A stretch of 54,151 nucleotides of DNA from Candidatus Limnocylindrales bacterium (GTDB taxonomy: Bacteria; Chloroflexota; Limnocylindria; Limnocylindrales; CSP1-4). The position numbers and the translations under genes were made by a program. Shown here one piece after another: positions 9,446 through 45,032 of the stretch. Under the pieces are notes generated by a model. The model was not told the origin of the DNA, made no database searches, and saw only the letters and a list, made by a program, of their open reading frames with translations. The stretch spans positions 1-54,151 of the forward strand of contig JBCLDE010000005.1 of the NCBI GenBank assembly GCA_038915165.1, written 5' to 3'. The first letter of the stretch is position 1, and each line of letters starts with the position of its first letter.

Positions 9446-9463
9446 GATTCTGCATACAGAATC
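9446..9463. promoter_or_regulatory. Imperfect palindrome GATTCTGCATACAGAATC, putative operator upstream of the hydantoinase-E1 operon
   Basis: 7-bp inverted arms around a one-mismatch TGTATACA core. Confidence 0.6.
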
Positions 9464-9520
9464 AAGGCGATTCGTGCACGAACTGCGGTCCGAAACTCGC
9501 GGGCCGCTACGAATGGGTCG

Positions 9521-10519
9521 TTACCCGCCGGGATCGACCGCGTCCATCGTCTCGGGGGCGAACAGATCGGTCATCTCGAGATCACGTCGGGCGATGCCCT
9601 GGTGTCGAGCCCAACGCATCGCGGTCTCGAGCTCGGTTCGATTGGCCGCAACGCCGTAGGGCCAGTACCGGTCGCCGAACAGGGCTTCGGCGGCCTCCAG
9701 CTCGGCCACGAGCCACGGGACCATCGTCGCGAGCGTGCCCGTGAATCGCAGCCGTCGTCGCGCCGCCGCCTTCGCCTCGCAGAACGCCTTGAACAGGCTG
9801 CGCGCGATCCACCGGTCGGCCTCGTACACATCACGCCGCATGACGACGAGGTGCATGATCGGGAACATCCCGGTGCGCCGGTACCATGCCGCCTCGACGT
9901 CGCGGTAGTCAGGGAAGAGGCGAACGATCTCGGGACGGCCTTCTCGAGCGACGTCCGGCGTGTGGGGTGCGAAGAGCGCGTCGATCTCGCCCGCTACCAG
10001 CATCTCGTTGAGCGTTCCACCTCGCGGGACCATCTCGACCTGGACATCCTCTGGGATGTCAACAGGCGCCCGCTCCCGCATGCCGGGCGTCTCCTGGCCG
10101 CCGAACACCCAGGTCATGTCCGATGGCCGCACGCCGTGGTCTTCCTCAAGGATCCCGCGAAGCCAGAGGTTCACGGTGAGCTGGTACTGCATCGTGCCGA
10201 CGCGCTTGCCGATCAGGTCCTCGGGACGGTCGATGCCGGCGTCTCGATGGACGTAGATGTAGCCATGGCGGAAGGAGCGGGCCGGAAAGACCGGGATCCC
10301 CACCAGGCCGTCATCGCCACGCCCTCGGAGGTTGAGGTAGGTCGCCAACGACATCTCGGCGACCGGGAACTCACGATGGCGAGCGACGCGTTCGAACAGC
10401 TCACCGGGATCGAGGGCGACGTAGGTCAGGTCGAGACCCTCTGGCTGGATGGACCCGTCCGCCAGCCCACGGGTCCGATCGTATTCGCCGCAGGCGAGCG
10501 TGAGTCGCAGGCGCGTCAT
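9521..10519 (-). CDS. 4,5-dihydroxyphthalate decarboxylase-like protein (periplasmic-binding-protein fold, no signal peptide)
   Basis: LTLACGEYDRT..L.DG, E.SL..Y, PVFP.R.FRH, W.RGIL...HG, FPIMH.VV, YWPYG...N. Confidence 0.85.
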   Translation of the reverse strand: MTRLRLTLACGEYDRTRGLADGSIQPEGLDLTYVALDPGELFERVARHREFPVAEMSLATYLNLRGRGDDGLVGIPVFPARSFRHGYIYVHRDAGIDRPEDLIGKRVGTMQYQLTVNLWLRGILEEDHGVRPSDMTWVFGGQETPGMRERAPVDIPEDVQVEMVPRGGTLNEMLVAGEIDALFAPHTPDVAREGRPEIVRLFPDYRDVEAAWYRRTGMFPIMHLVVMRRDVYEADRWIARSLFKAFCEAKAAARRRLRFTGTLATMVPWLVAELEAAEALFGDRYWPYGVAANRTELETAMRWARHQGIARRDLEMTDLFAPETMDAVDPGG

Positions 10520-10541
10520 GTCAAACCCTCCGTCCCGGTGC

Positions 10542-10569
10542 TACCTTTGCCCTGTACCTTTGCCCTGTA
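10542..10569. repeat. 13-bp tandem direct repeat TACCTTTGCCCTG x2 in a divergent promoter region
   Basis: Copies at 10542-10554 and 10555-10567, followed by TA. Confidence 0.9.
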
Positions 10570-10575
10570 TACAGG
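10564..10575. promoter_or_regulatory. Perfect palindrome CCTGTATACAGG, putative GntR-family operator
   Basis: Lies between divergent genes 10519(-) and 10615(+); the same core recurs in other intergenic regions. Confidence 0.7.
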
Positions 10576-10614
10576 ATGCGTCAATCCACGAGGCTTGTTG
10601 ATGGAGTCGACCGG

Positions 10615-11661
10615 ATGACCGACCACCCACCCGTCGTCCGCAGCGCCCCGGTCGAGGTATTCGTCCGTCTGCCGCATTCGTGGTGCGGCGCGAGCTTGGA
10701 CGGGATCCTCCAGGTCGCCGAGGCTGCCGAGGCGCTCGGTTTCGCCGGGGTCTCCGTCCAGGACCACATCCTCTCCGGCCACGCCGTGGCCCCGTGCGGA
10801 CATCGCCACCTCGAAGACGACCGGATGGTCCTGGAGCCGCTCACAACGCTTTCCTTCGTCGCGGCCCGCACGAGCCGCGTCCGGCTCCTGACCGGCATCC
10901 TCGTCCTGCCCTTCCGCCATCCGATCTGGGTCGCCAAGACAGCCGGCACGCTCGACGTCCTCTCCAAGGGCCGCCTCATCCTGGGCGTCGGGGTGGGAGC
11001 GCCGCGCAGTCGGACGACGGATGGTGTCCAGAACATGGGTCCGCATGCCGACATCGCGAGTCGCGAGTCGGCCCTCTTCAAGCTGCCCGGATCCCGCGGC
11101 CAGATCATGGATGAATCGCTCGAGGCTTTGGACCGGCTGTGGCGCGACGAGTCGGCCAGCTATCACGGCGAACTCTTCGATTTTGACGGCGTGGACCTGC
11201 GACCGCAGCCCGTGCAACGGCCCCGCCCACCGATCTGGGTCGGGGGACGCGCCGAAGCCGCCCACCGCCGAGCCGCACTGATCGCCGACGCGTGGTTCCC
11301 GAGCCAGGCCTCCGTTGAGGTGCTGGCGGCGGGACGAGCCCGCGTCCTCGAGATGGCGGCAACGGCCGATCGACCCGCTCCAAGGTTCGCCGTCAACCTG
11401 TTCGTCTCGGTCGACCGCGACGGCGACCTCGCTCGCGACGTGATCCGTGACGGCCTGGGCCACCGGTTCCGCACGGAGGCGGGCCTGTTCGAGTCGTCGA
11501 TCGCCGGGACGCCGGCCGAGGTCCGCGATCGGATGCTGGCCTACGTCGACGCTGGCTGCTCGGCGTTCGACCTCAAGATCCTGCCGCTGACGCTGGATGA
11601 GACCCTGGCCCAGATGGAGCTGTTCGCTCGTGAGGTCCTGCCGACGGTGATGTCGGCGTAG
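10615..11661 (+). CDS. LLM-class flavin/F420-dependent oxidoreductase
   Basis: AE.LGF..V.VQDH, EPLTTL..VAA.T.RVRL.TG.LVLP.RHP...AK...TLD.LS.GRL.LGVG, P.PVQ.P.PPIWVGG. Confidence 0.92.
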   Translation: MTDHPPVVRSAPVEVFVRLPHSWCGASLDGILQVAEAAEALGFAGVSVQDHILSGHAVAPCGHRHLEDDRMVLEPLTTLSFVAARTSRVRLLTGILVLPFRHPIWVAKTAGTLDVLSKGRLILGVGVGAPRSRTTDGVQNMGPHADIASRESALFKLPGSRGQIMDESLEALDRLWRDESASYHGELFDFDGVDLRPQPVQRPRPPIWVGGRAEAAHRRAALIADAWFPSQASVEVLAAGRARVLEMAATADRPAPRFAVNLFVSVDRDGDLARDVIRDGLGHRFRTEAGLFESSIAGTPAEVRDRMLAYVDAGCSAFDLKILPLTLDETLAQMELFAREVLPTVMSA

Positions 11662-11681
11662 CGCCAGGCGCCCAGCAGCGT

Positions 11682-12050
11682 TCAAGGGCGACCGAGGACG
11701 ATGATGAGCGTCGCGGTCCCACCGACGATCATCACGGCGCCGAGGACCACGATGGCAGTCCGGACCACCGTCCGCCGAGATCGCCGCACGTAGTCATCGA
11801 CGACCGTCCAGAGCCCGGCGCCCCCGTGGAGGACCGCCGTGACGAGCATGACCCAGTCGGTGGTCGCGACCAGCCCGGACTGCCAGCGTTCCGCCACGAA
11901 TGCGCTGTCCGTATCGGCCACGTCTGTGAACAGGTGCGTCACCGCAAAGTGCGTCAGCACGAGGGGGGCGAGGGCGAGCGCCGTGAGGCGGATCGTGATC
12001 CACGCGATGCTCGGACGGATGCGATACGGGCGCGTCCGGGGCGTATTCAT
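11682..12050 (-). CDS. Succinate dehydrogenase-like hydrophobic membrane anchor (SdhD-like)
   Basis: Three hydrophobic segments, W...RLTA..L....L.H, heme-type LHG..GL..VVDDY. Confidence 0.8.
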   Translation of the reverse strand: MNTPRTRPYRIRPSIAWITIRLTALALAPLVLTHFAVTHLFTDVADTDSAFVAERWQSGLVATTDWVMLVTAVLHGGAGLWTVVDDYVRRSRRTVVRTAIVVLGAVMIVGGTATLIIVLGRP

Positions 12051-12541
12051 GCGAACACCGGTCGAAGGATGACGATCGCGGCGGGAACGGTGAGCGTGGC
12101 GGTTACGACGAGGGCCGCCCAGAGCAGCCGCTCCGAGGTCCGCGTGCCGATGTCTACGAGATCGAGCAGCAGGAGTCGAAGCCCGTTGCAGGTGTGCCAC
12201 AGGATGCCGGCGAAGAGGGCGACCTCGAACGCTCGCATCGGCGCCGAGCCGTAGAGGACGTGCACTTCGTCGTAGAGCTCCGGCGAGATCGCGATGAGGC
12301 CCACGTCGACCAGGTGGAGGGCCAGGAAGGCGAAGATCGCAAACCCGCTGATCCGGTGGGCGTAGAAGGCCCATCGGTGAAGTTCGAGGCGTGCCGTGGA
12401 CGGCCGACCGAGGCGGGCGATCAGCCCTGGTGTGCCTCCCGCCGCCCGGCGGGACCGCACCACGACGAGCAGTCCGTACGCCAGGACCCCGGCCGTGACG
12501 ATCGTGAGCCCGGCGACGAATGCCAGTTGCGCCGGCGTCAT
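12047..12541 (-). CDS. Succinate dehydrogenase-like cytochrome b subunit (SdhC-like)
   Basis: WAF..HRISG..I..FL..H..D, WH..NGLRL.L.D. Confidence 0.85.
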   Translation of the reverse strand: MTPAQLAFVAGLTIVTAGVLAYGLLVVVRSRRAAGGTPGLIARLGRPSTARLELHRWAFYAHRISGFAIFAFLALHLVDVGLIAISPELYDEVHVLYGSAPMRAFEVALFAGILWHTCNGLRLLLLDLVDIGTRTSERLLWAALVVTATLTVPAAIVILRPVFA

Positions 12542-14268
12542 CAGGTGTCTCCGGCGCGGTCGGCGTCGGGCGCCAGTCGCGCGAACGTCAGGGGAACGGT
12601 GGTCGGCGAGAGGGAACCGGGCTGGCCACGTACGACGACGGTCCGCAGCCAGGATGCGTCGTCGCGAGCCGGATGGTCGCGGCGGATATGGACACCGCGC
12701 GACTCGGTCCGCGCCAGCGCCGCAGTGACGACCGCCTCCATCGTGGTCAGACGGCTATCGAGATCGAGCACCTCCTGCCACGCCAGGTTTGCCGCGGCGT
12801 CGCCGGCGACCCGGATCGTCGCGGCAGCCGCGCGAATCGTCCCGATCTGATACCGGGCGGCCCGGAGCTCCGCGTCGTCGCGACGCAGGCCGACATGATC
12901 CCACGCCAGGTCACGCAACTCGTCGGCGAGCGCCCACGGCGCCGGGCCGGCCGGGGCGTCGGCCAGCGGCGCCCAGACTCGAGCGATGACCTCGTCGGCG
13001 GCTGTCGTCGACGGGCGGGCTGGGCCGCGTTCTCGGGCGAGTTCGGCGGCTCGACGGCCCGCCCGACGTCCGAAGACGGTCGACTCGGCGATGCCGTTCC
13101 CGCCGGTCCAGCTAGCCCCGTGGACCCCGCCGGCATCCTCGCCTGCCGCGAGGAGGCCCGGGAGCTCGGTCTCGCCGTGTTCGCCGATCACCACCCCACC
13201 GATCCCGATGTGAGCCGCGGGGGCGATCGGGACCGGCTCCGTGGCGGGATCGATGCCCGTCAGTCGGATGCGAGCCACGATGTCGCCGAACCGTTCGTCA
13301 AGGGTGGCCCGCCCGATCGGTCGGCAGTCCAGCAGGACGGCCCCGTCCTCGGTGCCGAGCCCGTCGCGGATCGTGGCATATGCGGCCGCGGCGACGACGT
13401 CTCGCGGGGCTCGCTCGGCGCGTTCGGGGTCGTGTTGCAGCATGAACCGTTCGCCGTGTCCGTCGAGCAGCGTGGCGCCGGCGAACCGCAGGGATTCCTC
13501 GAGCAGGACGCCCGTGACCTTGGAACCGCCGGCCGCGAGTCCGACCGAGAGGAACTGCACCATCTCCATGTCGCGCAATGGCAGGCCCGCCCGCAGCGCC
13601 ATGGCCAGCCCGTCGCCGGACTTCTCCCGCGCCGGTGTCGCGACGCGATAGGAGGCCGCCGCAGACCCGCCCATGGCAAGGACGACGACCGGGGTCGCGA
13701 GCAGGAGCGGCCGTCCTCGACGTGCGTCGAGCACCACGACCCCACACACACCGTCGTCGTCGACCAGGAGGTCGAGCGCCCGATGATCGGCGAGCTCGAT
13801 CGGCCGTGACCGGAGCAGGTCGTCCCGCAGACGGTTCACGATCTCGAGACCCGTCATGTGGCCGTGCGAGACCTTGCGGTCGCGCGACTGGCCCGCGAAC
13901 GGCGACAGCCGCACCGTGCCATCGGCCGTCCGATCGAAGGCGCAGCCGAGATCATCCGAGAGCTCGCGGATGACCGACGGCGAGTCGTCCGACAGGACGG
14001 CCGCGAGTCCCTGGTCGGACAGGAAAGCGCCGCCGCGGATGATGTCCTCGAAGTGGATCGCCGGCGAGTCGTCGGCGCCGAGGGCCGCGTTGATCCCCAG
14101 GGCCATGATCGAGCAGCCGGACCGCCCGACGAGGCCCTTGCTCACGAGGGCGACCCGGAGCCCGGGACCGGCTGCGACCGCGTGGCGTGTGGCCATCAGA
14201 CCCGCCGCGCCCGACCCGAGGATGGCGACATCCACGGCGATGACGTCCAAGGCGGGGACGGCCCTCAC
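12541..14268 (-). CDS. Sdh/Frd/NadB-family FAD-binding flavoprotein subunit with non-canonical active site
   Basis: GSGAAG, GDG.AMA.RAG..L.DMEMVQF, PRDVV, PAAH...GG, GL.AAGE..GGVHGA, R.ESRG.H.R.D.P; start placed at a GTG overlapping the upstream stop. Confidence 0.9.
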   Translation of the reverse strand: MRAVPALDVIAVDVAILGSGAAGLMATRHAVAAGPGLRVALVSKGLVGRSGCSIMALGINAALGADDSPAIHFEDIIRGGAFLSDQGLAAVLSDDSPSVIRELSDDLGCAFDRTADGTVRLSPFAGQSRDRKVSHGHMTGLEIVNRLRDDLLRSRPIELADHRALDLLVDDDGVCGVVVLDARRGRPLLLATPVVVLAMGGSAAASYRVATPAREKSGDGLAMALRAGLPLRDMEMVQFLSVGLAAGGSKVTGVLLEESLRFAGATLLDGHGERFMLQHDPERAERAPRDVVAAAAYATIRDGLGTEDGAVLLDCRPIGRATLDERFGDIVARIRLTGIDPATEPVPIAPAAHIGIGGVVIGEHGETELPGLLAAGEDAGGVHGASWTGGNGIAESTVFGRRAGRRAAELARERGPARPSTTAADEVIARVWAPLADAPAGPAPWALADELRDLAWDHVGLRRDDAELRAARYQIGTIRAAAATIRVAGDAAANLAWQEVLDLDSRLTTMEAVVTAALARTESRGVHIRRDHPARDDASWLRTVVVRGQPGSLSPTTVPLTFARLAPDADRAGDT

Positions 14269-14999
14269 GCGTGACCCCTCACTCGCCACCGCCGGAGCCG
14301 TCGGATCGCGCGCGCCGGATCGAGGCCCTTCGGGCAGGCGAGGCTACAGGCGCCAATCCCGTGACAGCCCTCCACGCCATCTGGGCCGCCGATCGCCACG
14401 AGCCGGTCGGCCGGGTGGGTGTCGCGCGGGTCCGCGATGACGACCATCGCCCTGGTCAGCGCGGCCGGACCGAGGAACGCGCGGTCCAGGGCGGACAGGT
14501 CGCAGGCCGCGAAGCACGCGCCGCACGAGATGCAGTCGAGGCTCGGCTCGATGACGTCCCGACCGGCCGGGTCGAGCGGGCGCGGGCCGGGACCAGCGGA
14601 CTCAGTGCCCTCCTGCCCGTCAAACGGGACCGGACTCGCGGGAGCGACCGACAACCGCGCGCCGACCGCCTCCCACCGCTCGGCGAATGGCGCCGGGTCG
14701 ACCACGAGGTCGCGCACCACCGGGAACCCGCCGAGCGGCGCGAGATGGACCGTGCCCCCGCCATCCGGCACGACCGTCTGACACGCCAGGACCGCACGCC
14801 CGTCGAGGAGGACCGTGCACGTCCCGCAGAACCCGCTCCGACACGAGTATCGGTAGTAGAGCGAGGGATCCTGCCGACCGATCTCGCAGAGCAGGTCCAG
14901 GATGACGTGGGCGTCCTCGCGGGCGACGACGAACGCTCGCTGGGCATCCGGATGGCTCCTTGCCACCTCGACGCGAACGGCCGTGCCGGAGGTCGCCAT
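14265..14999 (-). CDS. Sdh/Frd iron-sulfur subunit (SdhB/FrdB-like)
   Basis: SCRSGFCGTC..LAC (2Fe-2S), V.RDLVVD, CISCGAC...C (4Fe-4S), CHGIGACSLACPKG (3Fe-4S type). Confidence 0.9.
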   Translation of the reverse strand: MATSGTAVRVEVARSHPDAQRAFVVAREDAHVILDLLCEIGRQDPSLYYRYSCRSGFCGTCTVLLDGRAVLACQTVVPDGGGTVHLAPLGGFPVVRDLVVDPAPFAERWEAVGARLSVAPASPVPFDGQEGTESAGPGPRPLDPAGRDVIEPSLDCISCGACFAACDLSALDRAFLGPAALTRAMVVIADPRDTHPADRLVAIGGPDGVEGCHGIGACSLACPKGLDPARAIRRLRRWRVRGHA

Positions 15000-15006
15000 C
15001 GGCCGG

Positions 15007-15705
15007 TCAGCCCGGGCTCGTCGCCACGTCGGTCAGGTAGTCCAGCACCTCGCTCGACGACATGACGTTCGCGTACTTCTGATCCATGTCGAAGAGGTTC
15101 ACCGCATGGCTGAGTTCGCCGCGGTCGAACACGCCATCCTCGACGACGATCACCGGGAAGTTGTAGGAGAAGGCATCGACGACCGTCGCCCGGACGCAGC
15201 CGCTCGTCGTGCCGCCCGTGACAATGAGCGTATCCGCCCCGGCGCGGACCAGCAGCTCCAGTAGCGGCGTGCCGTGGAAGAGGCTGGGCTTGGTCTTGGG
15301 GAGCAGGACATCGGCGCTCGGATGGGGCGCGATCTCGGTTGGGATCTCGGCGGCGTCGGGCGGTGCCAGGCTGGCCTTCGGATGCTTCTCCGCCCACAGC
15401 CCCACGCCGCGGACGCCGAGTTGGGTGAAACCAGCCGAATAGACGACCGGTCGGCCGAGGGCGCGGGCGGGCGGCAGAAGCCGGCCGATCACATCGACGG
15501 CGTCCCAGCCGGCCTCCCCGCAGGAATTCGGGTACGTGGCGATGGACCGGAGGATCGGCTCGCGGACCCGGCCGACGAACCCGTACGTGACGTCGACCAC
15601 GAGCATGACCGGTCGGCGGCCCGGGGTCAGCGGCCGGCCGTAGCCCGCTGCCTCATAGATCACGCGATCGCGTGATCCGACGACGTCGCGCCAGCTACCG
15701 GACAT
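15007..15705 (-). CDS. Isochorismatase-family cysteine hydrolase (maleamate / N-carbamoylsarcosine amidase-like)
   Basis: Catalytic D (VVDV), K (KTKPS.F.GT.L) and C (TTSGCVRATVVDA); C-terminal NLFDM..KY. Confidence 0.9.
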   Translation of the reverse strand: MSGSWRDVVGSRDRVIYEAAGYGRPLTPGRRPVMLVVDVTYGFVGRVREPILRSIATYPNSCGEAGWDAVDVIGRLLPPARALGRPVVYSAGFTQLGVRGVGLWAEKHPKASLAPPDAAEIPTEIAPHPSADVLLPKTKPSLFHGTPLLELLVRAGADTLIVTGGTTSGCVRATVVDAFSYNFPVIVVEDGVFDRGELSHAVNLFDMDQKYANVMSSSEVLDYLTDVATSPG

Positions 15706-15714
15706 GGTCGCCGC

Positions 15715-16254
15715 TCAATAGCCGGGCGGGCCGGCCGCGGGCTGCCAGACGGGATCGGCGTCCGCGTCCGTCGCAACCACCTCACCGCGAAGCGCGGCTG
15801 CCGCCCACTGGATCGAGGTGACGATCTGCGCGTACCCGGTACATCGGCACAGGTTCCCCGAGATCGCCGTGCGGATCGTCGCCTCGTCCGGGTCCGCGTT
15901 CGACTCCAGCAGGGGCAGCGCGGCCATGATCATGCCCGGCGTGCAATACCCGCACTGGAGGCCATGCTGCTCGCGGAACCCCTCCTGGAGCGGATGGAGG
16001 ACGTCCCCATCCTCGAGGCCCTCGATCGTCCGAATGTCGTGCCCGTCCGCCTGCACCGCGAACAACGTGCAGGACTTCACGGCGCGCCCATCGAGATTGA
16101 TCGTGCAGGCGCCGCAACTCGTCGTATCACAGCCGATGTGGGTCCCCGTCAGACCGAGCACCTCGCGCAGGAAATGGACGAGCAGCAGCCGGGATTCGAC
16201 CGTTTCCGTATGATCCTCGCCATTCACCCGGACTCGGATCGCGTGCTCGCTCAT
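15715..16254 (-). CDS. Mo-hydroxylase small 2x[2Fe-2S] subunit (CoxS-like)
   Basis: GCDTTSCGACT, KSC, QCGYCTPG, GNLCRCTGY. Confidence 0.95.
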   Translation of the reverse strand: MSEHAIRVRVNGEDHTETVESRLLLVHFLREVLGLTGTHIGCDTTSCGACTINLDGRAVKSCTLFAVQADGHDIRTIEGLEDGDVLHPLQEGFREQHGLQCGYCTPGMIMAALPLLESNADPDEATIRTAISGNLCRCTGYAQIVTSIQWAAAALRGEVVATDADADPVWQPAAGPPGY

Positions 16255-17123
16255 GACTGGACTCCTCGGCGTGCTCGTTCCACGGCCAGGCGGATCGCCC
16301 GCTCGGCGACGGCGCGGGCCATCGCCCGCTTCACCTCCGCGGTGGCTCGCAGGTCCGCCCACGGATCGATCTCGACGAGCGCCTGGGCGGCCTCCGCGAT
16401 GGTCGCACGGTCGGGGGCGCGTCCGATCAGCGCCGCCTCGATCGCGGGCGAGCGGACCGGGGTCGGGGCGAGGTTCGTGAATGCTACCCGCGCCTCTGTG
16501 ACGAGCCCACCGTCGAGCACAACCACCGCCGCGGCCGCCGCGAGCGCGAAGTCCCCCACCTGGCGCTCGAACTTGACGTAGGCCGTGCCCTGTCCCGAGA
16601 TCGGCAGCGGCACCTCGATCCCGGTGAGCACCTCATCGGGCGCGAGCGCTACCTGGAGCAGATCCAGGTTGAAGTCGGCGGCCGCAATCGTCCGCTCGCC
16701 TGCGGGTCCCCGGGCGATGAGCCTGGCCTCGAGGGCGAGCATGATCGCCGGGTGATCGTTCGCCGGATCACCGTGAGAGAGATTGCCGCCGATGGTGCCG
16801 ACGTTCCGCACGCTCGGATCGGCGATCACGGAACACGCGTCGCCGAGGAGGGCGAGGGAACGAGCGACCGGTGACCGCAACAAGTCCGCCTGCCGCACCA
16901 TGGCGCCGATCCGCACGTGGCCGTCGACCTCCTCGATGGAAGCGAGGTCCGGGATCCGACCGAGGTCCACGAGGTCCGTCGGCTCCACGAGCCGCAGCTT
17001 CATGAGCGGGATGAGGCTCGCGCCACCGGCCAGCAGCTTGGCGCCAGGGCCGAGCCGCGCGAGCAGGCCGATGGCCTCATCGAGCGTGGCTGGTGAGTGG
17101 TAGGTGAACGCGGGCGGGTACAT
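16251..17123 (-). CDS. Mo-hydroxylase FAD-binding medium subunit (CoxM-like)
   Basis: F.Y..P.T.DEA, LAGG.SLIP.MKLR, RN.GTIGGN..H.DP..D. Confidence 0.95.
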   Translation of the reverse strand: MYPPAFTYHSPATLDEAIGLLARLGPGAKLLAGGASLIPLMKLRLVEPTDLVDLGRIPDLASIEEVDGHVRIGAMVRQADLLRSPVARSLALLGDACSVIADPSVRNVGTIGGNLSHGDPANDHPAIMLALEARLIARGPAGERTIAAADFNLDLLQVALAPDEVLTGIEVPLPISGQGTAYVKFERQVGDFALAAAAAVVVLDGGLVTEARVAFTNLAPTPVRSPAIEAALIGRAPDRATIAEAAQALVEIDPWADLRATAEVKRAMARAVAERAIRLAVERARRGVQS

Positions 17124-17124
17124 G

Positions 17125-37159: not shown

Positions 37160-37899
37160 CGGCGGGTCGTGGAACGGCGTGTCCGGCGTGTCCGGCGTGT
37201 CGCGGCCGACCGCGTCCGTGCCTCGCGACGGAGCGCTACGATCAGCGAGTCCCGGGAGATGCGGAGGTGGTCGCGCATGAGCCTAGCCCCACCCTCCGCG
37301 TCCCGCACCTTGATGAACTCGCGTAAGTCGGCGTGGATCGTCGGCGGCGGCAGGACATCCTTGAGCGCATGGTAGCGGTGGAGCTCGTGGCGCACTTGCA
37401 GGATCAGCGACGTCATCCGCGGTCGCGCCGCCCACCGGTAGAACTCCGCGTAGAACTCCCGCCGGCTTACGCCTCCAGGGGCGGCGTGGCCAGCGGTGAT
37501 GTCCATCTGCTGTCCGAGCTCGAGCAGAGCGGTCGCGCTTTCGTTCGTCAGGTTCCGGATCGCCAGCCGAACGAGGTGGACCTCGAGTAGCCGACGCAAT
37601 TCATAGAGTTCGGCGACTTCCTCGAGGCCCAGGCTGGCGACGCGCGCGCCGCGGCGGCCGTCGATGTGAATGAGGCCTTCGGCCTCCAAGCGTCGGAACG
37701 CATCGCGCAGGGGGATGCGGCTGACACCGAGCTCCGCAGCGAGGACTTCCTGACGAAGGCGGTCGCCCGGCTCGAAGACGCCGTCCAGAATGGCCTTGCG
37801 GAGGGCGCTGGTCGTGGATTCCTCGGCAGACGAATCGACGCCGACGGGGCTTTCGTCCATGAACGCCCGCAGGACGCCGGGAGGGATCGTCCCCTTCAC
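37156..37899 (-). CDS. GntR-family transcriptional regulator (FCD/FadR subfamily)
   Basis: LR.AILDG.F.PG.RL....LA.ELGVSR.PLRDA...LE.EGL, ELYELR..LE; GTG start after GGAGG RBS. Confidence 0.93.
   Translation of the reverse strand: MKGTIPPGVLRAFMDESPVGVDSSAEESTTSALRKAILDGVFEPGDRLRQEVLAAELGVSRIPLRDAFRRLEAEGLIHIDGRRGARVASLGLEEVAELYELRRLLEVHLVRLAIRNLTNESATALLELGQQMDITAGHAAPGGVSRREFYAEFYRWAARPRMTSLILQVRHELHRYHALKDVLPPPTIHADLREFIKVRDAEGGARLMRDHLRISRDSLIVALRREARTRSAATRRTRRTRRSTTRR
37175..37201. repeat. 9-bp tandem repeat x3 encoding the Arg-rich TRR tail of GntR
   Basis: CGGCGTGTC x3. Confidence 0.85.
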
Positions 37900-38035
37900 T
37901 GGTGCCTCCAACGTCGCGTCGGCAGGCAGTGCCGCCCGAACTGGCGCTCGGCGAGCTCCTGGGGTGCGGCGACGGCGCGGCCCGAGTCTACGGTACCGCG
38001 CCCGTTCCGCGGGGGTCGGTGCTGTGAGCGGGTGG

Positions 38036-39079
38036 TCACGCCGGGACCGCAAGGACGATCTTGCCGGCGTTTCGACGGGCGAGAAGATCCTCGAAGGCTT
38101 CCCTGATCTCCCCGAGCGGGCGGACGCCATGGATCACGGGTAGGACCGCGCCGCTCGCGAGAAGTTCGAGGGCACGGCGGAACTCGTCGCTCGTCGTGCC
38201 GGCAGTGGAGAGCAGTCGCAGCTGCATCCGGTAGAACAGGCTCAGGTCGAGCTCGACCCGGCCGCCGGCGTGGGCGCCACAGCTCAGGATCCGGCCGCCC
38301 TTGTCCATGGACGCCACCACCTCAGGCCAGAGCGACGGCGAACCCACGTTGTCGACGGCGACTGTGACGCCGAGGCCCCCTGTCTCGGCCCGGACCCGAT
38401 CGGCCAGCCCGTGCGGCTCGGCCGAAAGGATGACCGTTTCCGCGCCCAGTTCCCGGAGTCGGGCCAGCTTCGCCTCAGTGCCGGCCACCGCGATGACGCG
38501 GGCGCCCAGCCGTCGGGCGATCTGCACGACGGCCGATCCCAACCCGCCGGCGGCGCCGACGACGAGGACCCGATCCGACGGCCCGACCTCGCCGACCGTC
38601 TCCAAGAGGTGGATCGCGATGGGAACGGTGTGGGCAGCGGCCGCGGCGGAGATCCAGTCGACGGCGTCGGGGATGGGGAACACCGCGCGGGCGGGAAGGG
38701 CCACGAGCTCACCGAATCCTCCGGGTCGGTGGACGCCGATGTATACGGGGCGCTCGCATCCGGCTTCGTGACCCGATCGGCAGAACCGGCAGTCCAGGCA
38801 TGGGATGAGCGGCCGCGCGACGACCCGCGCCCCGACGGCCGGCGTCTCGACGCGTGGTCCGACAGCGACGACTTCACCGGCCGGATCGAGGCCGCCGATG
38901 TGCGGGAGCGTGATGCCCCGGCCGATGTTGGTCCGCTCGATGACGTGCACATCCGTCCGGTTCACGCAGACAGCGTGGACGCGAATGAGGACCTCCTCGG
39001 GCCCTGGGATCGGGTCGGCGACCGACTCCAGGACGAACCCATCGGGACTCCCGAAGGCGCGCAGGACCGCCGCTCGCAT
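38036..39079 (-). CDS. Medium-chain dehydrogenase/reductase (paralog of 61..1161)
   Basis: CLDCRFCRSGHEAGC, GVHRPGG, GAAGGLG, CG.HAG..VE.DL, GKI.L shared with the first gene. Confidence 0.92.
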   Translation of the reverse strand: MRAAVLRAFGSPDGFVLESVADPIPGPEEVLIRVHAVCVNRTDVHVIERTNIGRGITLPHIGGLDPAGEVVAVGPRVETPAVGARVVARPLIPCLDCRFCRSGHEAGCERPVYIGVHRPGGFGELVALPARAVFPIPDAVDWISAAAAAHTVPIAIHLLETVGEVGPSDRVLVVGAAGGLGSAVVQIARRLGARVIAVAGTEAKLARLRELGAETVILSAEPHGLADRVRAETGGLGVTVAVDNVGSPSLWPEVVASMDKGGRILSCGAHAGGRVELDLSLFYRMQLRLLSTAGTTSDEFRRALELLASGAVLPVIHGVRPLGEIREAFEDLLARRNAGKIVLAVPA

Positions 39080-39133
39080 CAGTGCGCCAAACCCACGGAG
39101 TTTGCGGCTCGCCCCGTTCGTAGCATGCCCATA

Positions 39134-39143
39134 CTGTATACTT
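39134..39143. promoter_or_regulatory. GTATAC box / TATACT -10 between the divergent MDR and OsmC operons
   Basis: CTGTATACTT. Confidence 0.6.
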
Positions 39144-39202
39144 TATGCTCGGCGTGGGCGGCTCTGCCACGCGCGATTCGCGAGCATGCAGGTGGGTGAA
39201 AT

Positions 39203-39787
39203 ATGCCGTTCATCGATCGTGTGACGCTCAAACAGAACCACGAGCAGACGATCGAGCGACTGGCTGCCGAGTCCGGCTTCGGGCTGATGCGACCCAGGGT
39301 GACCGCCCGGTTGGATCGGGACGTGTCGGTCGCCTCCACCTTCGAGCAATACGGCCGGCCGTTCACCTTCCTCGGGGACGAGGCACTCGATCGTGGTGGC
39401 CACGAGACGGGGCCCAGCCCGATGCGGTACTTCCTGAGCGGGCTGGCGTTCTGCATGCTCGGCTGGTGGGCCAAGGGCAGCGCTGTCGGGGACATCGAAC
39501 TGACCTCGCTGGAGGTGAATGTCGACACCCTGCTGGACATGCGCGGCGAGCACGGGTTCACGGATGTTCCCCAGTATCCGCAATGGCTCGTCCTCGACAT
39601 CGTCGTCGGCAGCGGCGAGGCGTCCCCGGAGGCGGTCCTGGCCGCGATCGATTGGGGCGATGAACGTTGTCCGCTCGGTGTCCTGGTTCGGCGCGCCATC
39701 CCCGTCTATCAACGCATCACGGTGGATGGGACGGTCGCTCGCGACACCGTGCCGCCGGACATGCGCGGAATACCAACCGCCCGATAA
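39203..39787 (+). CDS. OsmC/Ohr-family protein
   Basis: DE....GG...GPSP..Y.L.GLA.C and ERCP (two conserved Cys). Confidence 0.8.
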   Translation: MPFIDRVTLKQNHEQTIERLAAESGFGLMRPRVTARLDRDVSVASTFEQYGRPFTFLGDEALDRGGHETGPSPMRYFLSGLAFCMLGWWAKGSAVGDIELTSLEVNVDTLLDMRGEHGFTDVPQYPQWLVLDIVVGSGEASPEAVLAAIDWGDERCPLGVLVRRAIPVYQRITVDGTVARDTVPPDMRGIPTAR

Positions 39788-39821
39788 GGTCGGAGGCGGA
39801 CCAGAGCAGCGTGAGGGATCG

Positions 39822-41123
39822 ATGACGGATCCGGGCAGGCCACTGGATGCGGCGGCGCTTGACGCCGGCCTCGATGACACCCTCCGGGAAGAGCTCGTGA
39901 CGATGACCCGCGAGATGGTCGACATCCCGAGCCCGACCGGGGAAGAGGGCGAGCTCGCGTCGTACGTCCTCGACCGGTTCCGCGGGCTCGGCCTGAGGGC
40001 CGAGCTCCAGGAGGTGGAGCCGGGCCGGAGCAACATGATCGCCCGCTGGAACGGGACCGGCGACGGACCCAGCCTCCTGTTCAACGGCCATTTCGACACC
40101 GGGATGTCCGGGCGTGAAGAGGGAATCCCGTTCGGTCTGCGACCGGCGTCGCGGATCGTCGACGATGACTGGATCTACGGCCTGGGTGTCTCGAACATGA
40201 AGGTCGCCTTCGCCTGCTACTACGGGGCGATCCGCCTCCTGCAGAAGGCCGGACTGACGCCCTCGGGCGACCTGCTGGTCGCAGGTGTGGTCGGCGAGAC
40301 GGAGAAGGCCCCGATCAACGAGCATGCCGGCCCATCGGTGCGCGCCGGTGGCTGGGGCACGATCTACGCCGCCTATCACGGCGTCCTGGCCGATAACGCC
40401 ATCATCGGGGAGCCGACGGGCCTGCGCCTCCAGACCGGCAACTCGAGCTACATCTATGCGCGCGTCCGGAGTCGTGGTGCGTCGCAGCACACGTGGAGCA
40501 AGGAGCGTGGCGATGACGCGATGGCGAAGGCGATCCGCGTCCTGGAAGCGTTGCGCGCGTGGGAACCCGAGTTCGAGGCCGCGCATCCGCATCCACGGAT
40601 GGGCTCGCGGATCGGCTTCGGCGGCATCACCGCGGGGAACTCGTTCCAGCCCGCCGTCAACCCACCGCGCGTGGCCGACCTGTTCCTGGACCTTCGGTAC
40701 CCGCCGGACTCCACGATCATGGATGTCCGTCGCGAGCTCCAGCGCGAGCTGCTGCGGATCCGACAGGAGGATCCGGCTCTCGCGACCGAGCTGACGCTCT
40801 ATCTCTGCCGCAACGGATACGAGGTCGACGACAGCGAACCGGTCGTCCACGCGATCGAGGAGGCCCACGCCGACGTCTTCGGCGAGGTGCCCGGACGGCC
40901 GGAGCGGTACCGCTACGACGTCTCGGCCGACACGTCGATCCTCCATGAGTTCGGGGTACCGGCGATCACCTACGGTCCGGGCGGTCTACGTCGCGACGGC
41001 GGCCGCAGCGTCTACGACGAGTTCGGGGAGCTGGTCTCGATCAAGAACATCCTCCTGTGCACCCGCGTCTATGCGCGCGCAGCGGCCCGGCTGACGGCCG
41101 CGACGCCAGTCGGGGCCGGATGA
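39822..41123 (+). CDS. M20-family metallo-amidohydrolase (ArgE/DapE-like)
   Basis: V.IPSPTGEE, LFNGHFDT, G.G.SNMK, IGEPT, P.ITYGPG. Confidence 0.88.
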   Translation: MTDPGRPLDAAALDAGLDDTLREELVTMTREMVDIPSPTGEEGELASYVLDRFRGLGLRAELQEVEPGRSNMIARWNGTGDGPSLLFNGHFDTGMSGREEGIPFGLRPASRIVDDDWIYGLGVSNMKVAFACYYGAIRLLQKAGLTPSGDLLVAGVVGETEKAPINEHAGPSVRAGGWGTIYAAYHGVLADNAIIGEPTGLRLQTGNSSYIYARVRSRGASQHTWSKERGDDAMAKAIRVLEALRAWEPEFEAAHPHPRMGSRIGFGGITAGNSFQPAVNPPRVADLFLDLRYPPDSTIMDVRRELQRELLRIRQEDPALATELTLYLCRNGYEVDDSEPVVHAIEEAHADVFGEVPGRPERYRYDVSADTSILHEFGVPAITYGPGGLRRDGGRSVYDEFGELVSIKNILLCTRVYARAAARLTAATPVGAG

Positions 41124-42397
41124 CCATCGCGCCGCAGCCGGGCGGACTCGACGAGGCGGCGGACCCGTTCCCCTACGTCACGACGCGTCGCCTGCGCGAA
41201 CAGCGGTGGCTCCTCGACGCGACGATCCGCCAGATCGGGCTCGACTGGGACCAGGGGCGGAGCCGGTACACGGCCTACCCGGCCGGCCTCGACGCCGAGC
41301 CCGACTTCCAGCGCATCCGGGAACGGGTGCGCAAGCTGGCGGACATGTACCGCGAGTTCGCGGCCGCCGCGCGACGGCGCGAACGCCTTTCCGAGGAGGC
41401 CGAGGCGGACGGCCGGACGGTCGAGGCACGCGAGCACGCGTTCGTCGCGTCGATCCTGTGGGGCAACGCCCAGTGGCCACTGTTCGGGAACAGCCCGCTC
41501 GTCCTCGCGCTCGGCGACCGCAAGACGGCCTGCTTCGATCGCTTCATCCGCCACGCCCCGCACCCCGTCACGCGGATCGAGATCCCGTTCGGCGCGGCCA
41601 CCCTGCCGGGACTCCTCCACCTCCCCGCCGCCGGCGCCGGACCCTTCCCGTTGTTCATCCAGATCGGTGGGATGGACTCCTTCAAGGAGCACCAGGTCGC
41701 GATGTACGGCGACAAGGTGCTTGAGCGGGGCATGGCCCGCCTGTCGGTCGAGATCCCGGGTCAGGGCGTGGCCCTGGAACGCGGCCTCTTCGTCACCGAG
41801 ACCAGTGCCGCCGACGCCGGTCGGGCCATCGTCGCGTGGGCCAGGCAGCAACCGGACCTCGCCACGGATCGCGCCGTGCTGGCCGGCAACTCGTTCGGAT
41901 CGTTCTGGGCGCTGCAGATGGCCGCCGCGGTCGAGGGCCTCGCGGGCTGCGCGGTGTCCGCGGTCATCCACGAACCCGGCATGCACGAGATCTTCGAGAC
42001 GGCGTCCCCGACCTTCAAGGCCCGGTTCATGTACATGTCCGGGTACGACGACGAAGACGCGTTCGACGCGTTCGCAGCGCGCCTCGACCTGCGCCCGATC
42101 GCGGGATCCGTGCGCTGTCCGCTCCTGGTCCTCGCGGGCGAGAACGACGAGCTGAGTCCTATCCAGCACACGCTGGACCTGCTGCGTCTGGTCCTCGCCC
42201 CGGTCGACCTGCTGGTCTACCGGGGCGAGAAGCACAGCATCGGCGGCGGACCGGCGTCGGCCTTCGGACCGAACCGCCATCACGTGGTCGCGGGCTGGGC
42301 GCTGGACCGCGTGCGTGGCGTCGAGGCGCAGGATCGGTTCCGGGTCGTCGACACGACCGGGGCCGTGGAGGATCGTCCGCCCGTCTGGCGAGGGTGA
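41120..42397 (+). CDS. Alpha/beta hydrolase (2,6-dihydroxypseudooxynicotine hydrolase / FrsA-like)
   Basis: IEIPF....LPG.LHLP, GG.DS.KE, RG......PGQG, nucleophile GNSFG, GE.D, H. Confidence 0.82.
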   Translation: MTIAPQPGGLDEAADPFPYVTTRRLREQRWLLDATIRQIGLDWDQGRSRYTAYPAGLDAEPDFQRIRERVRKLADMYREFAAAARRRERLSEEAEADGRTVEAREHAFVASILWGNAQWPLFGNSPLVLALGDRKTACFDRFIRHAPHPVTRIEIPFGAATLPGLLHLPAAGAGPFPLFIQIGGMDSFKEHQVAMYGDKVLERGMARLSVEIPGQGVALERGLFVTETSAADAGRAIVAWARQQPDLATDRAVLAGNSFGSFWALQMAAAVEGLAGCAVSAVIHEPGMHEIFETASPTFKARFMYMSGYDDEDAFDAFAARLDLRPIAGSVRCPLLVLAGENDELSPIQHTLDLLRLVLAPVDLLVYRGEKHSIGGGPASAFGPNRHHVVAGWALDRVRGVEAQDRFRVVDTTGAVEDRPPVWRG

Positions 42398-42401
42398 CCG
42401 G

Positions 42402-42938
42402 ATGGCCGAGCGCGCCCCGAGAACGAGGAGGCAGCGCATGGACTCCGTCCTGCTGATCGGAGGCCTCGTCGTCGCGCTGACCGTCGTGGCGCTGTGGCAG
42501 GGCGGCGCCGCACGAGCCTTCGAAGGCTGGGAGCGAGGTGGCCAGATCGCCTGGAGCGTGCTGCCCAACCTCGTGCTTGGGTTCGCCGCCGCCGGACTCA
42601 TCGCGACCGTCGTACCGCCGTCGCTCATCGGCGGGGCCCTCGGCGACGAATCCGGCATGCGCGGTCTGATCATCGCGACCGTCGCCGGCATCCTCACGCC
42701 CGGCGGGCCGTTCCTCCAGTTCCCGCTGGTGGCGGCGCTGGCCAAGGGCGGTGCTGCACCCGGGCCGCTGGCCGCCTACCTCACCGCCTGGTCGCTCATC
42801 AGCGTGAACCGGGTGATCGTCTGGGAGCTGCCGCTGCTCGGGTCAGGCTTCACGGTCGCGCGCTGGGCGATCAGCCTGGCCCTCCCGATCCTCATCGGAC
42901 TGGCGATGCCGGTCGTGATGCGGCTGCTGCCCCGCTGA
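42402..42938 (+). CDS. Small permease (DUF318/ArsP-like)
   Basis: G.ESG.RG..IA..AG.LTPGGP...FP.VAAL...GA; alternative start at 42438. Confidence 0.75.
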   Translation: MAERAPRTRRQRMDSVLLIGGLVVALTVVALWQGGAARAFEGWERGGQIAWSVLPNLVLGFAAAGLIATVVPPSLIGGALGDESGMRGLIIATVAGILTPGGPFLQFPLVAALAKGGAAPGPLAAYLTAWSLISVNRVIVWELPLLGSGFTVARWAISLALPILIGLAMPVVMRLLPR

Positions 42939-42972
42939 TCGCGGTCCGCGCCGCCGCGCCGCGCCCCGATCG

Positions 42973-43827
42973 CTACTCGCTGTAGGATGGCCCCGCGTCG
43001 CTGCGCAGCATGCCCCAGATCCTGTGCCGCAGCTCCGCGAATGCCGGATCGAGCTTGACGTTCCCCTCGGTCCGCGGATAGCCGAACGGCACCTCCAGGA
43101 TCTCGGCGATCGTTCCCGGATGCGGCGTGAAGACGGCAATCCGCTTCGAGAGGAAGATGGCCTCATCGACCGAATGGGTGACGAAGACTGCGGTCTTGCG
43201 GGTGCGCTCCCAGATCTGGAGGAGCTCCACCTGCATGACTTCTCGAGTCTGGGCGTCGAGCGAACCGAACGGCTCGTCCATCAACAGGATCTCAGGGTCG
43301 ATCGCCAACGCCCGCGCGAGGCCCACGCGCTGCTGCATCCCGCCCGACAGTTCGTGCGGATGGTGATTGATGAACTTCGTCAGGCCCACCATCTCGATAT
43401 AGCTCTTCGCCACCTCGTCGCGCTCGCCCTTCGGCCGGCCCGCCGACTCGAGCGGGAAGACGACGTTGCCGAGGACCGTCCGCCAGGGGAACAGCCCGAA
43501 GTTCTGGAAGACGAACGCTCGTTCCCGGCCGGGCCCGGTGATCTTCTTGCCGTTGACGCGGATCTCGCCGCGATCGATCGGCAGGAGGCCGTCGATAGCC
43601 TTGAGCAGGGTCGTCTTGCCACAGCCGGAGGGACCGAGCAGGCTGACGAACTCCCCGTCCTCGACACTGAGGTTGACGTCGCGGAGCGCGTGCACGCGCT
43701 CCGACGTCCCCTTCTGCCCGGCCTTGGAATAGAACTTCTCGACGTGGTCGATCTCGATCTTCCCGGTGCCCGGACTCCCCTGGGCGGGGGCGGTGGTGGT
43801 GGTTGCGTTGTCGGGTTGCACGGTCAT
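42973..43827 (-). CDS. ABC transporter ATP-binding protein (NitT/TauT/SsuB family)
   Basis: GPSGCGKT, LFPWRTV, LSGGMQQR, LLMDEPF..LDAQTR, VTHS.DEA. Confidence 0.96.
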   Translation of the reverse strand: MTVQPDNATTTTAPAQGSPGTGKIEIDHVEKFYSKAGQKGTSERVHALRDVNLSVEDGEFVSLLGPSGCGKTTLLKAIDGLLPIDRGEIRVNGKKITGPGRERAFVFQNFGLFPWRTVLGNVVFPLESAGRPKGERDEVAKSYIEMVGLTKFINHHPHELSGGMQQRVGLARALAIDPEILLMDEPFGSLDAQTREVMQVELLQIWERTRKTAVFVTHSVDEAIFLSKRIAVFTPHPGTIAEILEVPFGYPRTEGNVKLDPAFAELRHRIWGMLRSDAGPSYSE

Positions 43828-43926
43828 CGGCTGCTCCTAAGGTTCCTGGTCACACGGGTACGCGACGATCGAGACGGGTCGCGATGGCCGGGGCAGGAGC
43901 CGCGCGGCCGAGACAGGGACGCCCCA

Positions 43927-44970
43927 TCACACGGGAGTCCGGCTGCTGCCAGCCATCGCCGCGCGGAGTTCCGGCACGACCTCCGCTGCGATGAGCTCGA
44001 GCATCGACTCGAACTCTTCGAACTGGAACCGCACGTCGAACACGAAATGGTCGAATCCACGGTCCCAGAGCTTCATGACACCATCGACGATGTCGCCCGG
44101 CTCGCCAGCGAACACGGCTCCCTCGACATCCTCGAGCGTATCCCACCAGCCCGACGCCGGCTTCATCCAGTGGTGCTGACCATCCTCGACGAGGCCGGCC
44201 ACGTTCACCGCGGCACGGGCTTTCGCGCGGTCGCGGCCGATTTGCACGCGAGGGACGGACAGCAGCCCGAGTCGACGTCCGCTCTGGGCCTCGAGCTCAT
44301 GCAGGCGCGCGAGCCGATCGTCCATCGTCAGGAACGGAAGGGTCCCGATCAGATAGCCGTCCGCGTGCTCGGCGGCGATCTCTACGGCCGTCCGCGACGG
44401 TCCGCCGAACCAGAGCGGGATCGGCGACGCGGGCTTCGGCTCCAGGGTCACATCATCGACGCTGAACACCTCGCCCTGGACCGTGACGTGGTCTTCGGAC
44501 AGGGCGCGCCGGATGATCTCGATCATCTCGATGACGGCGATCCGGCGCTGTTTCACGTCTACCCCACCGAGGGCCAACTCGTCGCCGCCGTGGCCGGCTC
44601 CGATCCCGGCGACGACACGCCCACCCGTCAGGAAGGACAACGCCGCGAGTTCCTGGGCGAGCTTGAGCGGGTGGCGCGTGGGGATCAGCACGGATGTCCC
44701 GAGCTGGATCCGGCTGGTCCGTGCCCCGAGCGCCGCGAGTGTCACGATCGGCTCGATGAACCGGATGCTGCTGGCTGCCTCGTGGGCGTGCGGTCGCCAC
44801 AGGAGGTGGTCGCGGACCCAGACCGCATCGAAGCCGAGACGCTCGACGAGTTCTCCGGCTGCCATCAGCCGCTCGGGCGTGGCGTACGCACCGAAATGCG
44901 GCAGCATCACGCCGAAAGTCATACCCTTGGCGTTGCGTGCCAGCGGGTTGGGGACGACGGGTAGGCTCAC
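43927..44970 (-). CDS. LLM-class flavin/F420-dependent oxidoreductase (paralog of 25145..26104)
   Basis: FGVMLPHFG, LGFDAVWVRDH, EP.VTLAAL.ART, RHP..LA; start either GTG 44970 or ATG 44922. Confidence 0.9.
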   Translation of the reverse strand: MSLPVVPNPLARNAKGMTFGVMLPHFGAYATPERLMAAGELVERLGFDAVWVRDHLLWRPHAHEAASSIRFIEPIVTLAALGARTSRIQLGTSVLIPTRHPLKLAQELAALSFLTGGRVVAGIGAGHGGDELALGGVDVKQRRIAVIEMIEIIRRALSEDHVTVQGEVFSVDDVTLEPKPASPIPLWFGGPSRTAVEIAAEHADGYLIGTLPFLTMDDRLARLHELEAQSGRRLGLLSVPRVQIGRDRAKARAAVNVAGLVEDGQHHWMKPASGWWDTLEDVEGAVFAGEPGDIVDGVMKLWDRGFDHFVFDVRFQFEEFESMLELIAAEVVPELRAAMAGSSRTPV

Positions 44971-45020
44971 GACAATCCCTTCACGTCGGGCCGGGCGCGA
45001 TGGCAGCTGCCATTGCGCAT

Positions 45021-45032
45021 CTAGTATACAAA
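45021..45032. promoter_or_regulatory. GTATAC box between the divergent LLM and LVIVD genes
   Basis: CTAGTATACAAA. Confidence 0.6.

Follow-up and report, generated by a model that had tools for sequence, protein, structure and literature searches.

Contig JBCLDE010000005.1 of a Candidatus Limnocylindrales bacterium, the whole 54,151-base stretch of which we call the window, carries a large catabolic gene island whose intergenic DNA is marked by a palindromic GTATAC box. The boxes lie close to promoters, are specific to the island, and co-occur in other organisms with orthologs of one regulator, and we consider it very probable from these patterns that they are operators of the FCD/FadR-type GntR protein encoded within the island at 37156..37899. 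An earlier note on this DNA had listed the boxes and proposed that the lone GntR represses all of the operons behind them, which would make the island a single regulon. All GTATAC coordinates listed there are exact, and our new gene map confirms its statement that eight copies are intergenic and that five of these (10567, 19550, 26144, 39136, and 45024) lie between divergent genes. The window is one whole contig (C5) and represents about 2.2% of the DNA of the source assembly (G000; 2,423,044 bases in 165 contigs, 68.8% GC, 77% complete), other contigs of which are referred to below as C21, C30, C36, C80, and C98. Genes were called by third-position GC content (GC3) and named by Pfam and NCBIfam profiles, and transcription units were deduced from strand and spacing alone, resulting in a box-associated set of 42 genes in approximately 13 units at 61..46260; a search for terminators returned nothing informative, and a search of RNA runs for the sequence listed none.

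GTATAC occurs 11 times in the window against an expectation of 1.04, and none of the 100 dinucleotide-preserving shuffles of the window that we used to set the chance level reached this number (maximum 4). A scan of the full window placed the copies at 10567, 19550, 21019, 24972, 25061, 26144, 28833, 36938, 38741, 39136, and 45024, with none to the left of 10567 or to the right of 45024, which agrees with the earlier statement that only three copies are coding and that none is found to the right of the tRNA gene. The three coding copies (21019, 36938, and 38741) fall within genes for a bicupin, an MFS protein, and a Zn-dependent alcohol dehydrogenase (Zn-ADH), respectively, have G/C-rich flanks, and are consistent in number with chance. 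The 15 intergenic segments of the island, 1,595 bases in total, hold the remaining eight copies where 0.10 are expected (Poisson p = 2.6e-13), and the 1,039 intergenic segments of 20–600 bases from the rest of the genome, 207,040 bases in total, hold 13, so that intergenic DNA genome-wide is about 80-fold poorer in GTATAC than that of the island. Equal frequency throughout the genome, which the earlier note had named as speaking against a regulon, is therefore not what we found, and the regulon reading stands. The comparison of island motifs with the genome background, carried out as an unbiased word count for k = 6, 7, and 8, points the same way, as GTATAC, GTATACA, and CTGTATAC each rank first or second by enrichment. 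The whole assembly contains 55 copies, 11 of them on C5. The 44 copies outside the window equal the dinucleotide expectation of about one per 54 kb; GTATAC is therefore not avoided genome-wide, and restriction-site avoidance is excluded as the cause of the contrast. An origin of the boxes from a repeat or mobile element was likewise rejected because their flanking sequences are unrelated. The base adjoining the core of the intergenic boxes is T, A, or C but never G, and these boxes are located 27–116 nt upstream of called start codons.

The proposed regulator gene, on the reverse strand, overlaps the downstream MFS gene by 4 nt and begins, like its homologs, at a GTG (37899). Its product matches Pfam GntR (PF00392) over residues 35–91 with 60.9 bits against a cut-off of 27, revealing a winged helix-turn-helix (wHTH), and Pfam FCD (PF07729) with 45.7 bits against a cut-off of 24.3. 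The FCD domain assigns the protein to the FadR subfamily, and its relatives in the Protein Data Bank (PDB) are all GntR/FCD proteins. Among 39 aligned relatives the wHTH is nearly invariant and H215 fully so, with conservation of at least 90% for H193 and H181; these three histidines are presumably metal ligands. R65 and R69 are invariant among the relatives as well and stand opposite Arg45 and Arg49 of Atu1419 from Agrobacterium fabrum, a placement taken from the ungapped phmmer range to PDB entry 6Z74 (query 7–55, chain 16–64); in FadR and Atu1419 these arginines of helix alpha-3 contact bases and phosphates. Thr46 of Atu1419 is replaced by Ile. GntR is the only regulator found in the island, Pfam and NCBIfam searches having revealed no other regulator family among the 42 called genes. 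A 332-aa open reading frame (ORF) at 9521–10519 that matches no Pfam family was considered as a second regulator and excluded, as it resembles NMT1-fold proteins of the 4,5-dihydroxyphthalate decarboxylase type. Only three genes with a GntR HTH are present in the assembly, at its 77% completeness, and the contigs encoding the other two contain no GTATAC. Metagenomic relatives of the island GntR are numerous, with identities of 50–96%; they include a 96%-identical homolog (P0002) on a 68-kb contig and three homologs of 55–68% identity whose source is labeled Candidatus Limnocylindrales.

To relate the box to the regulator across genomes, we picked metagenome loci by two peptide patterns of the winged helix alone, and the DNA motif therefore had no part in their selection. 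This resulted in 26 loci encoding relatives of 41–69% identity, 25 of which have the 5′ end of the gene on the contig, and 54 loci encoding remoter GntR proteins, 52 of which could be evaluated; the controls were seven further hexamers that are palindromic and equal GTATAC in base composition. GTATAC is present in 22 of the 26 relative loci, in a total of 38 copies against a control mean of 15.3, and the 54 remoter loci contain 61 copies as compared with 56 for the controls. A box lies between −150 and +100 of the gntR 5′ end in 18 of 25 relative loci and in 12 of 52 remoter loci, a difference for which the Fisher p value of 5.7e-5 is indicative only, because the loci are partly kin (21 sites represent 16 distinct contexts) and p values therefore overstate the significance. 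Within the same 25 intervals we counted 19 copies of GTATAC and four matches to all seven controls combined. Based on crude gene calls, 23 of the 38 GTATAC copies in the relative loci are non-coding, as are 18 of the 107 control matches.

Genes of the island also recur beside the relatives. Hydantoinase A/B genes with E1 pairs are found in loci L009, L012, L018, and L025, molybdenum hydroxylase (Mo-hydroxylase) genes are found in L006, L020, and L026, and LLM, MFS, and bicupin genes likewise reappear. Boxes occupy junctions that match those of the window: L006 (69% identity) has the order gntR-MFS-fused Mo-hydroxylase-FAD subunit-M24-...-CN hydrolase-amidase, and its only box is at the junction between the amidase and CN-hydrolase genes, matching 28833; L007 (55%) has the order ADH-gntR-MFS and carries a box ahead of ADH, matching 39136; and L009 and L025 have perfect boxes ahead of hydantoinase A, where the window has a near-box at 9452. 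Among 400 sampled genomes of the phylum, one (G353) encodes an ortholog, of 47% identity. Its approximately 2.4 Mb contain 49 copies of GTATAC, one of which lies some 70 nt upstream of gntR, a gene that here diverges from one for an MFS protein, and another of which is a perfect box upstream of a bicupin gene; the bicupin gene of the window has a GAATAC-type variant. A search of reference-genome contigs for close relatives returned only three distant loci. Together, the box in 18 of 25 relatives, the matching junctions, and the published sites of FadR-type proteins discussed below support the link from GntR to GTATAC that the earlier note had drawn.

A position weight matrix (PWM) was built solely from the foreign-locus sites. 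At −1 these favor T (0.70), and weak A/T/C preferences at +9, +10, and +12 represent a second, degenerate half unit located 7 nt downstream. By this matrix, island sites rank 2nd, 3rd, 4th, 6th, and 12th in the genome, and all eight boxes as well as the near-box at 9452 score at least 10.8 bits. The second half unit is visible at three sites of the window (GTATAC-a-GGATGC, GTATAC-t-TTATGC, and GTATAC-t-AGATGC).

Several observations weigh against assigning the boxes to the island GntR or against the island as the bounds of its regulon. The region just upstream of gntR (37900–38035) contains no box, the only resemblance in the 124-nt gap ahead of the gene being GTCTAC at 37986 with less than 6 bits, and autoregulation would therefore need read-through from the ADH gene. 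Seven of the 25 ortholog loci have no box at the 5′ end of the gene, among them the closest relatives L006, in which only about 330 bases precede gntR before the contig ends, and L007, and the 12 remoter loci that do have a box demonstrate that the motif is not exclusive to the ortholog group. Good sites are also present on other contigs: C36:20863 lies between RidA-like and MFS genes beside a transposase fragment, C80:7707 lies between the gene for a Mo-hydroxylase large subunit and an ABC operon, and C98:92 (18.2 bits) lies 75 nt upstream of a TetR gene. The regulon may therefore exceed C5, or these contigs may hold the missing left part of the island. In addition, gene calls outside the window were crude, our own GC3 caller giving only 78% of the genome as coding. 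Finally, half of the boxes form TATACT, so that part of the signal could be promoter sequence. Extended to all boxes, this would make GTATAC(T) a −10 element or another part of the core promoter with no dedicated regulator. In four of the eight boxes, at 19550, 28833, 39136 (+), and 45024 (−), GTATACT indeed presents a TAnnnT-type TATACT hexamer to the downstream gene, which is the overlap that the earlier note had reported for several boxes. A scan of 9300–29000 for the sigma-70 consensus gave two matches, both overlapping a box: the one at 24997–24969 takes the TAC of box 24972 into its second hexamer, TACATT, and the one at 9465–9436 overlaps the palindrome at 9446–9463. The sigma-70 scans (two and one promoter-like matches) are not above shuffles (2 versus 1.1). 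The other four boxes give TATACA or TATACG in both orientations with no in-register TAnnnT hexamer, conservation extends to the outer G and C and to the palindromy, GTATAC tracks the orthologs of one regulator in contigs spanning 55–75% GC, and the 20-kb flanks of two same-genus genomes described below hold no copy. Because GTATAC is not comparably frequent in genome-wide intergenic DNA, the plain −10 reading fails, and we regard it as hardly tenable.

The boxes could instead be operators for a different regulator whose gene lies outside the island, such as the TetR protein of C98, with GntR controlling its own unit only. The high score of the site ahead of the TetR gene and the lack of a box directly ahead of gntR fit this idea, and further regulators may be unseen in a genome that is 77% complete; however, the TetR site is a single occurrence, whereas the box accompanies the gntR gene in most relative loci, reappears at junctions matching those of the window, and has a core that is documented for the FadR subfamily (PMC11472048, PMC7797058, and PMC8092373; here and below, statements on published regulators refer to excerpts of these papers). 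An outside regulator is thus very unlikely in our view. We also regard it as unlikely that GntR binds the boxes but activates transcription or has a dual role at some promoters, or that the island is a mosaic of pathways sharing a regulator. Some FCD regulators do activate, CitO being described as an activator (PMC4746285, excerpt), the distances from box to start vary from 27 to 116 nt, the gene content is mixed (lactamase-like and nitrilase-like proteins, two Mo-hydroxylases, and an Sdh-like complex), and the ortholog loci hold differing subsets of island genes. Nevertheless, the GTATAC binders DipR and Atu1419 are repressors (PMC11472048 and PMC7797058), several boxes overlap −10-like hexamers, and a box is found at every deduced unit of the island.

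If the boxes are the operators of the island GntR, a dimer or higher oligomer of this protein would bind a palindrome with a consensus of approximately yTGTATACa, the strongest sites offering a degenerate second half unit 7 nt on (GTATAC-n-nnATGC). Bound in or beside the promoters of the approximately 13 units, GntR would keep the catabolic island of about 42 genes off until a pathway substrate or intermediate occupied its metal-containing FCD domain and caused its release. The box nearest to gntR is 39136, upstream of the preceding ADH gene, and this is probably the autoregulatory site, through which GntR would control itself as a member of the ADH-gntR-MFS unit. In this scheme we infer physical binding, repression rather than activation, the operon structure, and the effector from the sequence.

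The eight perfect boxes, together with GCATAC at 9452 and GTATTC at 21950, cover all of the approximately 13 deduced units. The leftmost element is an imperfect 18-bp palindrome (GATTCTGCATACAGAATC, 9446..9463) with 7-nt perfect arms around CATA; 16 of its 18 positions are symmetric, and it contains the one-mismatch core GCATAC (9452–9457) that the earlier note had recognized. It scores 12.3 bits and is located 58 nt upstream of an operon that runs on the reverse strand from 9393 to 61 and encodes caprolactamase-like hydantoinase A and B, two E1 alpha/beta pairs, a lipoyl protein, and a Zn-ADH. The two E1 pairs are consecutive and, with the free lipoyl-domain protein, occupy 1179–5471; the window encodes no E2 catalytic domain, whereas in L009 a gene for an E2 (2-oxoacid_dh) occupies the matching place. 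The box at 10567..10572 is part of a 12-bp palindrome (CCTGTATACAGG), is followed by a GGATGC half unit, and scores 19.2 bits; it separates a decarboxylase-like NMT1-fold gene (9521–10519, starting at 10519 on the reverse strand) from a divergent gene for an F420-type LLM oxidoreductase (10615, forward strand). A 13-nt direct repeat, CCTTTGCCCTGTA, is present there in two tandem copies (10541–10569), the second of which ends in the first bases of the box. The box at 19550..19555 (GTATACT, 13.0 bits) lies between an operon for a three-subunit Mo-hydroxylase, an isochorismatase, and a four-subunit Sdh/Frd-like complex, which runs from 19494 to 11682 on the reverse strand, and a divergent SDR-DoxX operon (19638, forward strand).

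Two boxes precede the ABC importer operon, which extends from 24887 to 20931 on the reverse strand and encodes a substrate-binding protein, two permeases, and a bicupin. The proximal box (24972..24977) precedes the probable lipoprotein start near 24887 by about 85 nt, and the second (25061..25066, 15.0 bits) lies 89 nt from it, that is, about 174 nt upstream if the binding-protein gene starts near 24887. Within the operon, the weak variant GTATTC (reverse complement GAATAC) at 21950..21955 scores 8.3 bits and is found 21 nt upstream of the bicupin start (21929, reverse strand). The importer, which is of the NitT/TauT type, is split: its binding protein and both permeases are encoded at 21964–24887, and the only matching ATPase is encoded at 42973–43827, 18 kb away behind an LLM gene, and both importer units have a box. 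Further to the right, the box at 26144..26149 (12.3 bits) separates an LLM gene (26104, reverse strand) from a divergent operon of a nitrilase-like gene and an amidase gene (probable ATG at 26168, forward strand). Between this amidase gene and a second nitrilase-like gene, the box at 28833..28838 (GTATACT, 18.3 bits) is placed 50 nt upstream of 28889 and heads an operon that extends to 35744 and encodes the second nitrilase-like protein, an NMT1-fold protein, an M24 hydrolase, and a second Mo-hydroxylase. In this Mo-hydroxylase (32964–35744, 926 aa) the [2Fe-2S] small subunit is fused to the C-terminus of the large subunit, a fusion that is also present in L006.

The box at 39136..39141 scores 17.8 bits, has the sequence context CATACTGTATACTTTATG, and lies between the Zn-ADH gene (39079, reverse strand), which is followed by the GntR/FCD and MFS genes, and a divergent operon that starts at 39203 on the forward strand and encodes OsmC, an M20 hydrolase, an FrsA-like hydrolase, and a permease fragment. 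The latter is an ArsP_1-type ORF (42402–42938) that covers profile positions 12–134 of 294 and stops 35 nt before the convergent ABC ATPase gene, and it is possibly truncated. The box at 45024..45029 is the top-scoring site of the window (21.7 bits) and separates the operon of the third LLM gene and the ABC ATPase gene (44922, reverse strand) from a divergent LVIVD-repeat gene (45133, forward strand). A second enriched word of the island intergenic DNA, the 8-mer GTTCCAAG/CTTGGAAC, is found at about 9427, 19573, and 26111 and in three copies in approximately 200 kb of background. One copy adjoins the ATG of the LLM gene at 26104, and the spacing to the boxes is variable; with three copies, no constant position, and no significance after correction for the number of 8-mers, GTTCCAAG was rejected as a motif.

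In total, the island encodes two Mo-hydroxylases of the xanthine dehydrogenase family, three F420-type LLM oxidoreductases, two nitrilase-like proteins, and an amidase. Naming the pathway by NCBIfam failed, as no equivalog model was matched above its cut-off except for a generic F420-LLM family; the caprolactamase models, whose cut-offs are 1000 bits, reached 334 and 620 bits. The island probably serves the breakdown of nitrogen-containing compounds, and pyridine carboxylates, lactams, or nitriles are guesses at the substrate class from the families present.

The island ends on the right next to the gene for tRNA-Ala (46735–46810), which is followed by leuS. Between the LVIVD gene and the tRNA gene lies the remnant of an amidohydrolase gene (46291..46716, reverse strand), which matches only positions 1–56 of 472 of the Amidohydro_3 profile and forms the right junction. 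Same-genus genomes have sequence matching the remnant beside the tRNA gene and more short matches about 1 kb away, and the gene therefore looks truncated or rearranged at the junction. The tRNA-Ala and leuS genes have 76–85% DNA identity to those of same-genus genomes among the matches listed. Two of these genomes, G005 and G016, have 20 kb on the left side of the tRNA gene that match contigs C21 and C30 of G000 and match C5 only at 46429–46704; these are the flanks that contain no GTATAC. Given that the gene set is missing at this locus in both genomes, the first 46.3 kb or so of the window are an insertion. Of 24 same-genus genomes, one was found to encode the GntR protein (41% identity); the sister family, covered by 16 genomes, yielded none. 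Pfam revealed no integrase or transposase among the island genes, and the base composition of the island is not deviant, with a GC content of 64–75% throughout that resembles the flanks. The left end of the island is beyond the contig. The proposal that the island is a single functional unit is supported, but its extent has to be revised, because the unit reaches further to the left than the earlier note had drawn it, through the hydantoinase operon to the start of the contig. Outside the island, at 53638–54150, the contig's right end interrupts a DDE_3 transposase fragment, which neighbors a PadR regulator gene and probably explains the assembly break at that end.

Some 42 genes, whose functions are mixed and poorly annotated, are linked by the boxes into a single probable unit, which the boxes also extend past what gene order alone suggests. 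Tentatively, and with more reserve than for the operator assignment, we suggest that one FCD-type repressor with a GTATAC core might coordinate a complete degradation route, one that has so far not been described, in an uncultured lineage of high GC content. If so, the route would have an N-heterocyclic, lactam, or nitrile compound as its substrate and would join a caprolactamase-like ATP-dependent hydrolase, E1-type dehydrogenases, two Mo-hydroxylases, and F420-dependent oxidoreductases; with approximately 13 units, the regulon would rank with the largest local ones known in the family, and the box could act as a barcode that delimits pathway genes across metagenomes, those on scattered contigs included. 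The regulator and its operator provide a handle for finding the inducer and hence the substrate of the pathway, and once the effector is known the pair may be useful as a biosensor part.

GntR of Bacillus subtilis is a repressor. A FadR/FCD-type GntR repressor that acts on GTATAC boxes in many promoters of a catabolic cluster is already known from DipR, described in 2024, and the island is an unusually large case of this established regulatory principle. DipR of Alcaligenes faecalis JQ135 represses the dip cluster, which acts on dipicolinic acid, as well as its own gene; it binds GWATAC in six promoters, as demonstrated by electrophoretic mobility shift assays (EMSA), footprinting, and mutated boxes, and is released by the substrate (PMC11472048). 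It also binds GAATAC, one of its natural sites is a one-mismatch variant, and its authors found the box in 30 types of clusters (PMC11472048). The island resembles this system in that a FadR-subfamily regulator is encoded inside a catabolic cluster, which in the case of DipR serves an N-heterocyclic acid, and in that the core is found in the promoters of many units, divergent pairs and a one-mismatch variant included. The key residues reported for DipR are R63, R67, H196, and H218; by counting only, R65/R69 and H193/H215 of the island GntR have the same spacings (4 and 22 residues). The two systems differ in scale, with six promoters for DipR as compared with 9–10 sites and about 13 units over 46 kb, and in the position of the box, which DipR has at its own promoter, whereas the box nearest to the island gntR is upstream of the preceding ADH gene. 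Catabolism by the dip cluster, as far as the excerpt describes it, does not need the molybdenum cofactor, whereas the island encodes two Mo-hydroxylases, and the pathways therefore differ; the dip-cluster hosts named in the excerpt are mostly Proteobacteria, unlike the uncultured high-GC lineage studied here.

Besides DipR, Atu1419, the UxuR protein of Geobacillus, and B. subtilis GntR are named as binders of GTA-TAC (PMC11472048). Atu1419, an FCD repressor of the VanR group (PDB 6Z74), binds ATGTATACAT at sites that overlap −10 boxes and reads the guanine through Arg45 (PMC7797058). It is similar to the island regulator in the aligned arginine pair and, presumably, in the metal contained in its FCD domain, and its degenerate second sites and paired sites within one intergenic region are features that recur in the island. 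On the other hand, the similarity of the two proteins is weak (E = 5.5e-6 over the N-terminal half), and Atu1419 is described in the excerpt as having three target promoters only, as a DNA-looping tetramer, and as responding to an effector that is not a pathway intermediate. The operators of B. subtilis GntR, Escherichia coli UxuR, and Geobacillus UxuR are ATACTTGTATACAAGTAT, AAATTGGTATACCAATTT, and CTAGTATACTAG, respectively (PMC11472048 and PMC8092373, the E. coli site being given in the latter). These proteins share with the island GntR the FadR subfamily and palindromes with a GTATAC core, and they differ from it in having sugar-acid regulons with one or few operators and long, perfectly palindromic flanks, whereas the flanks of the island sites are weakly conserved except for the T at −1 and the half unit at +7. 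With these FadR-type GTATAC binders as precedents, the mechanism that we propose for the island would thus be the textbook one for the subfamily.

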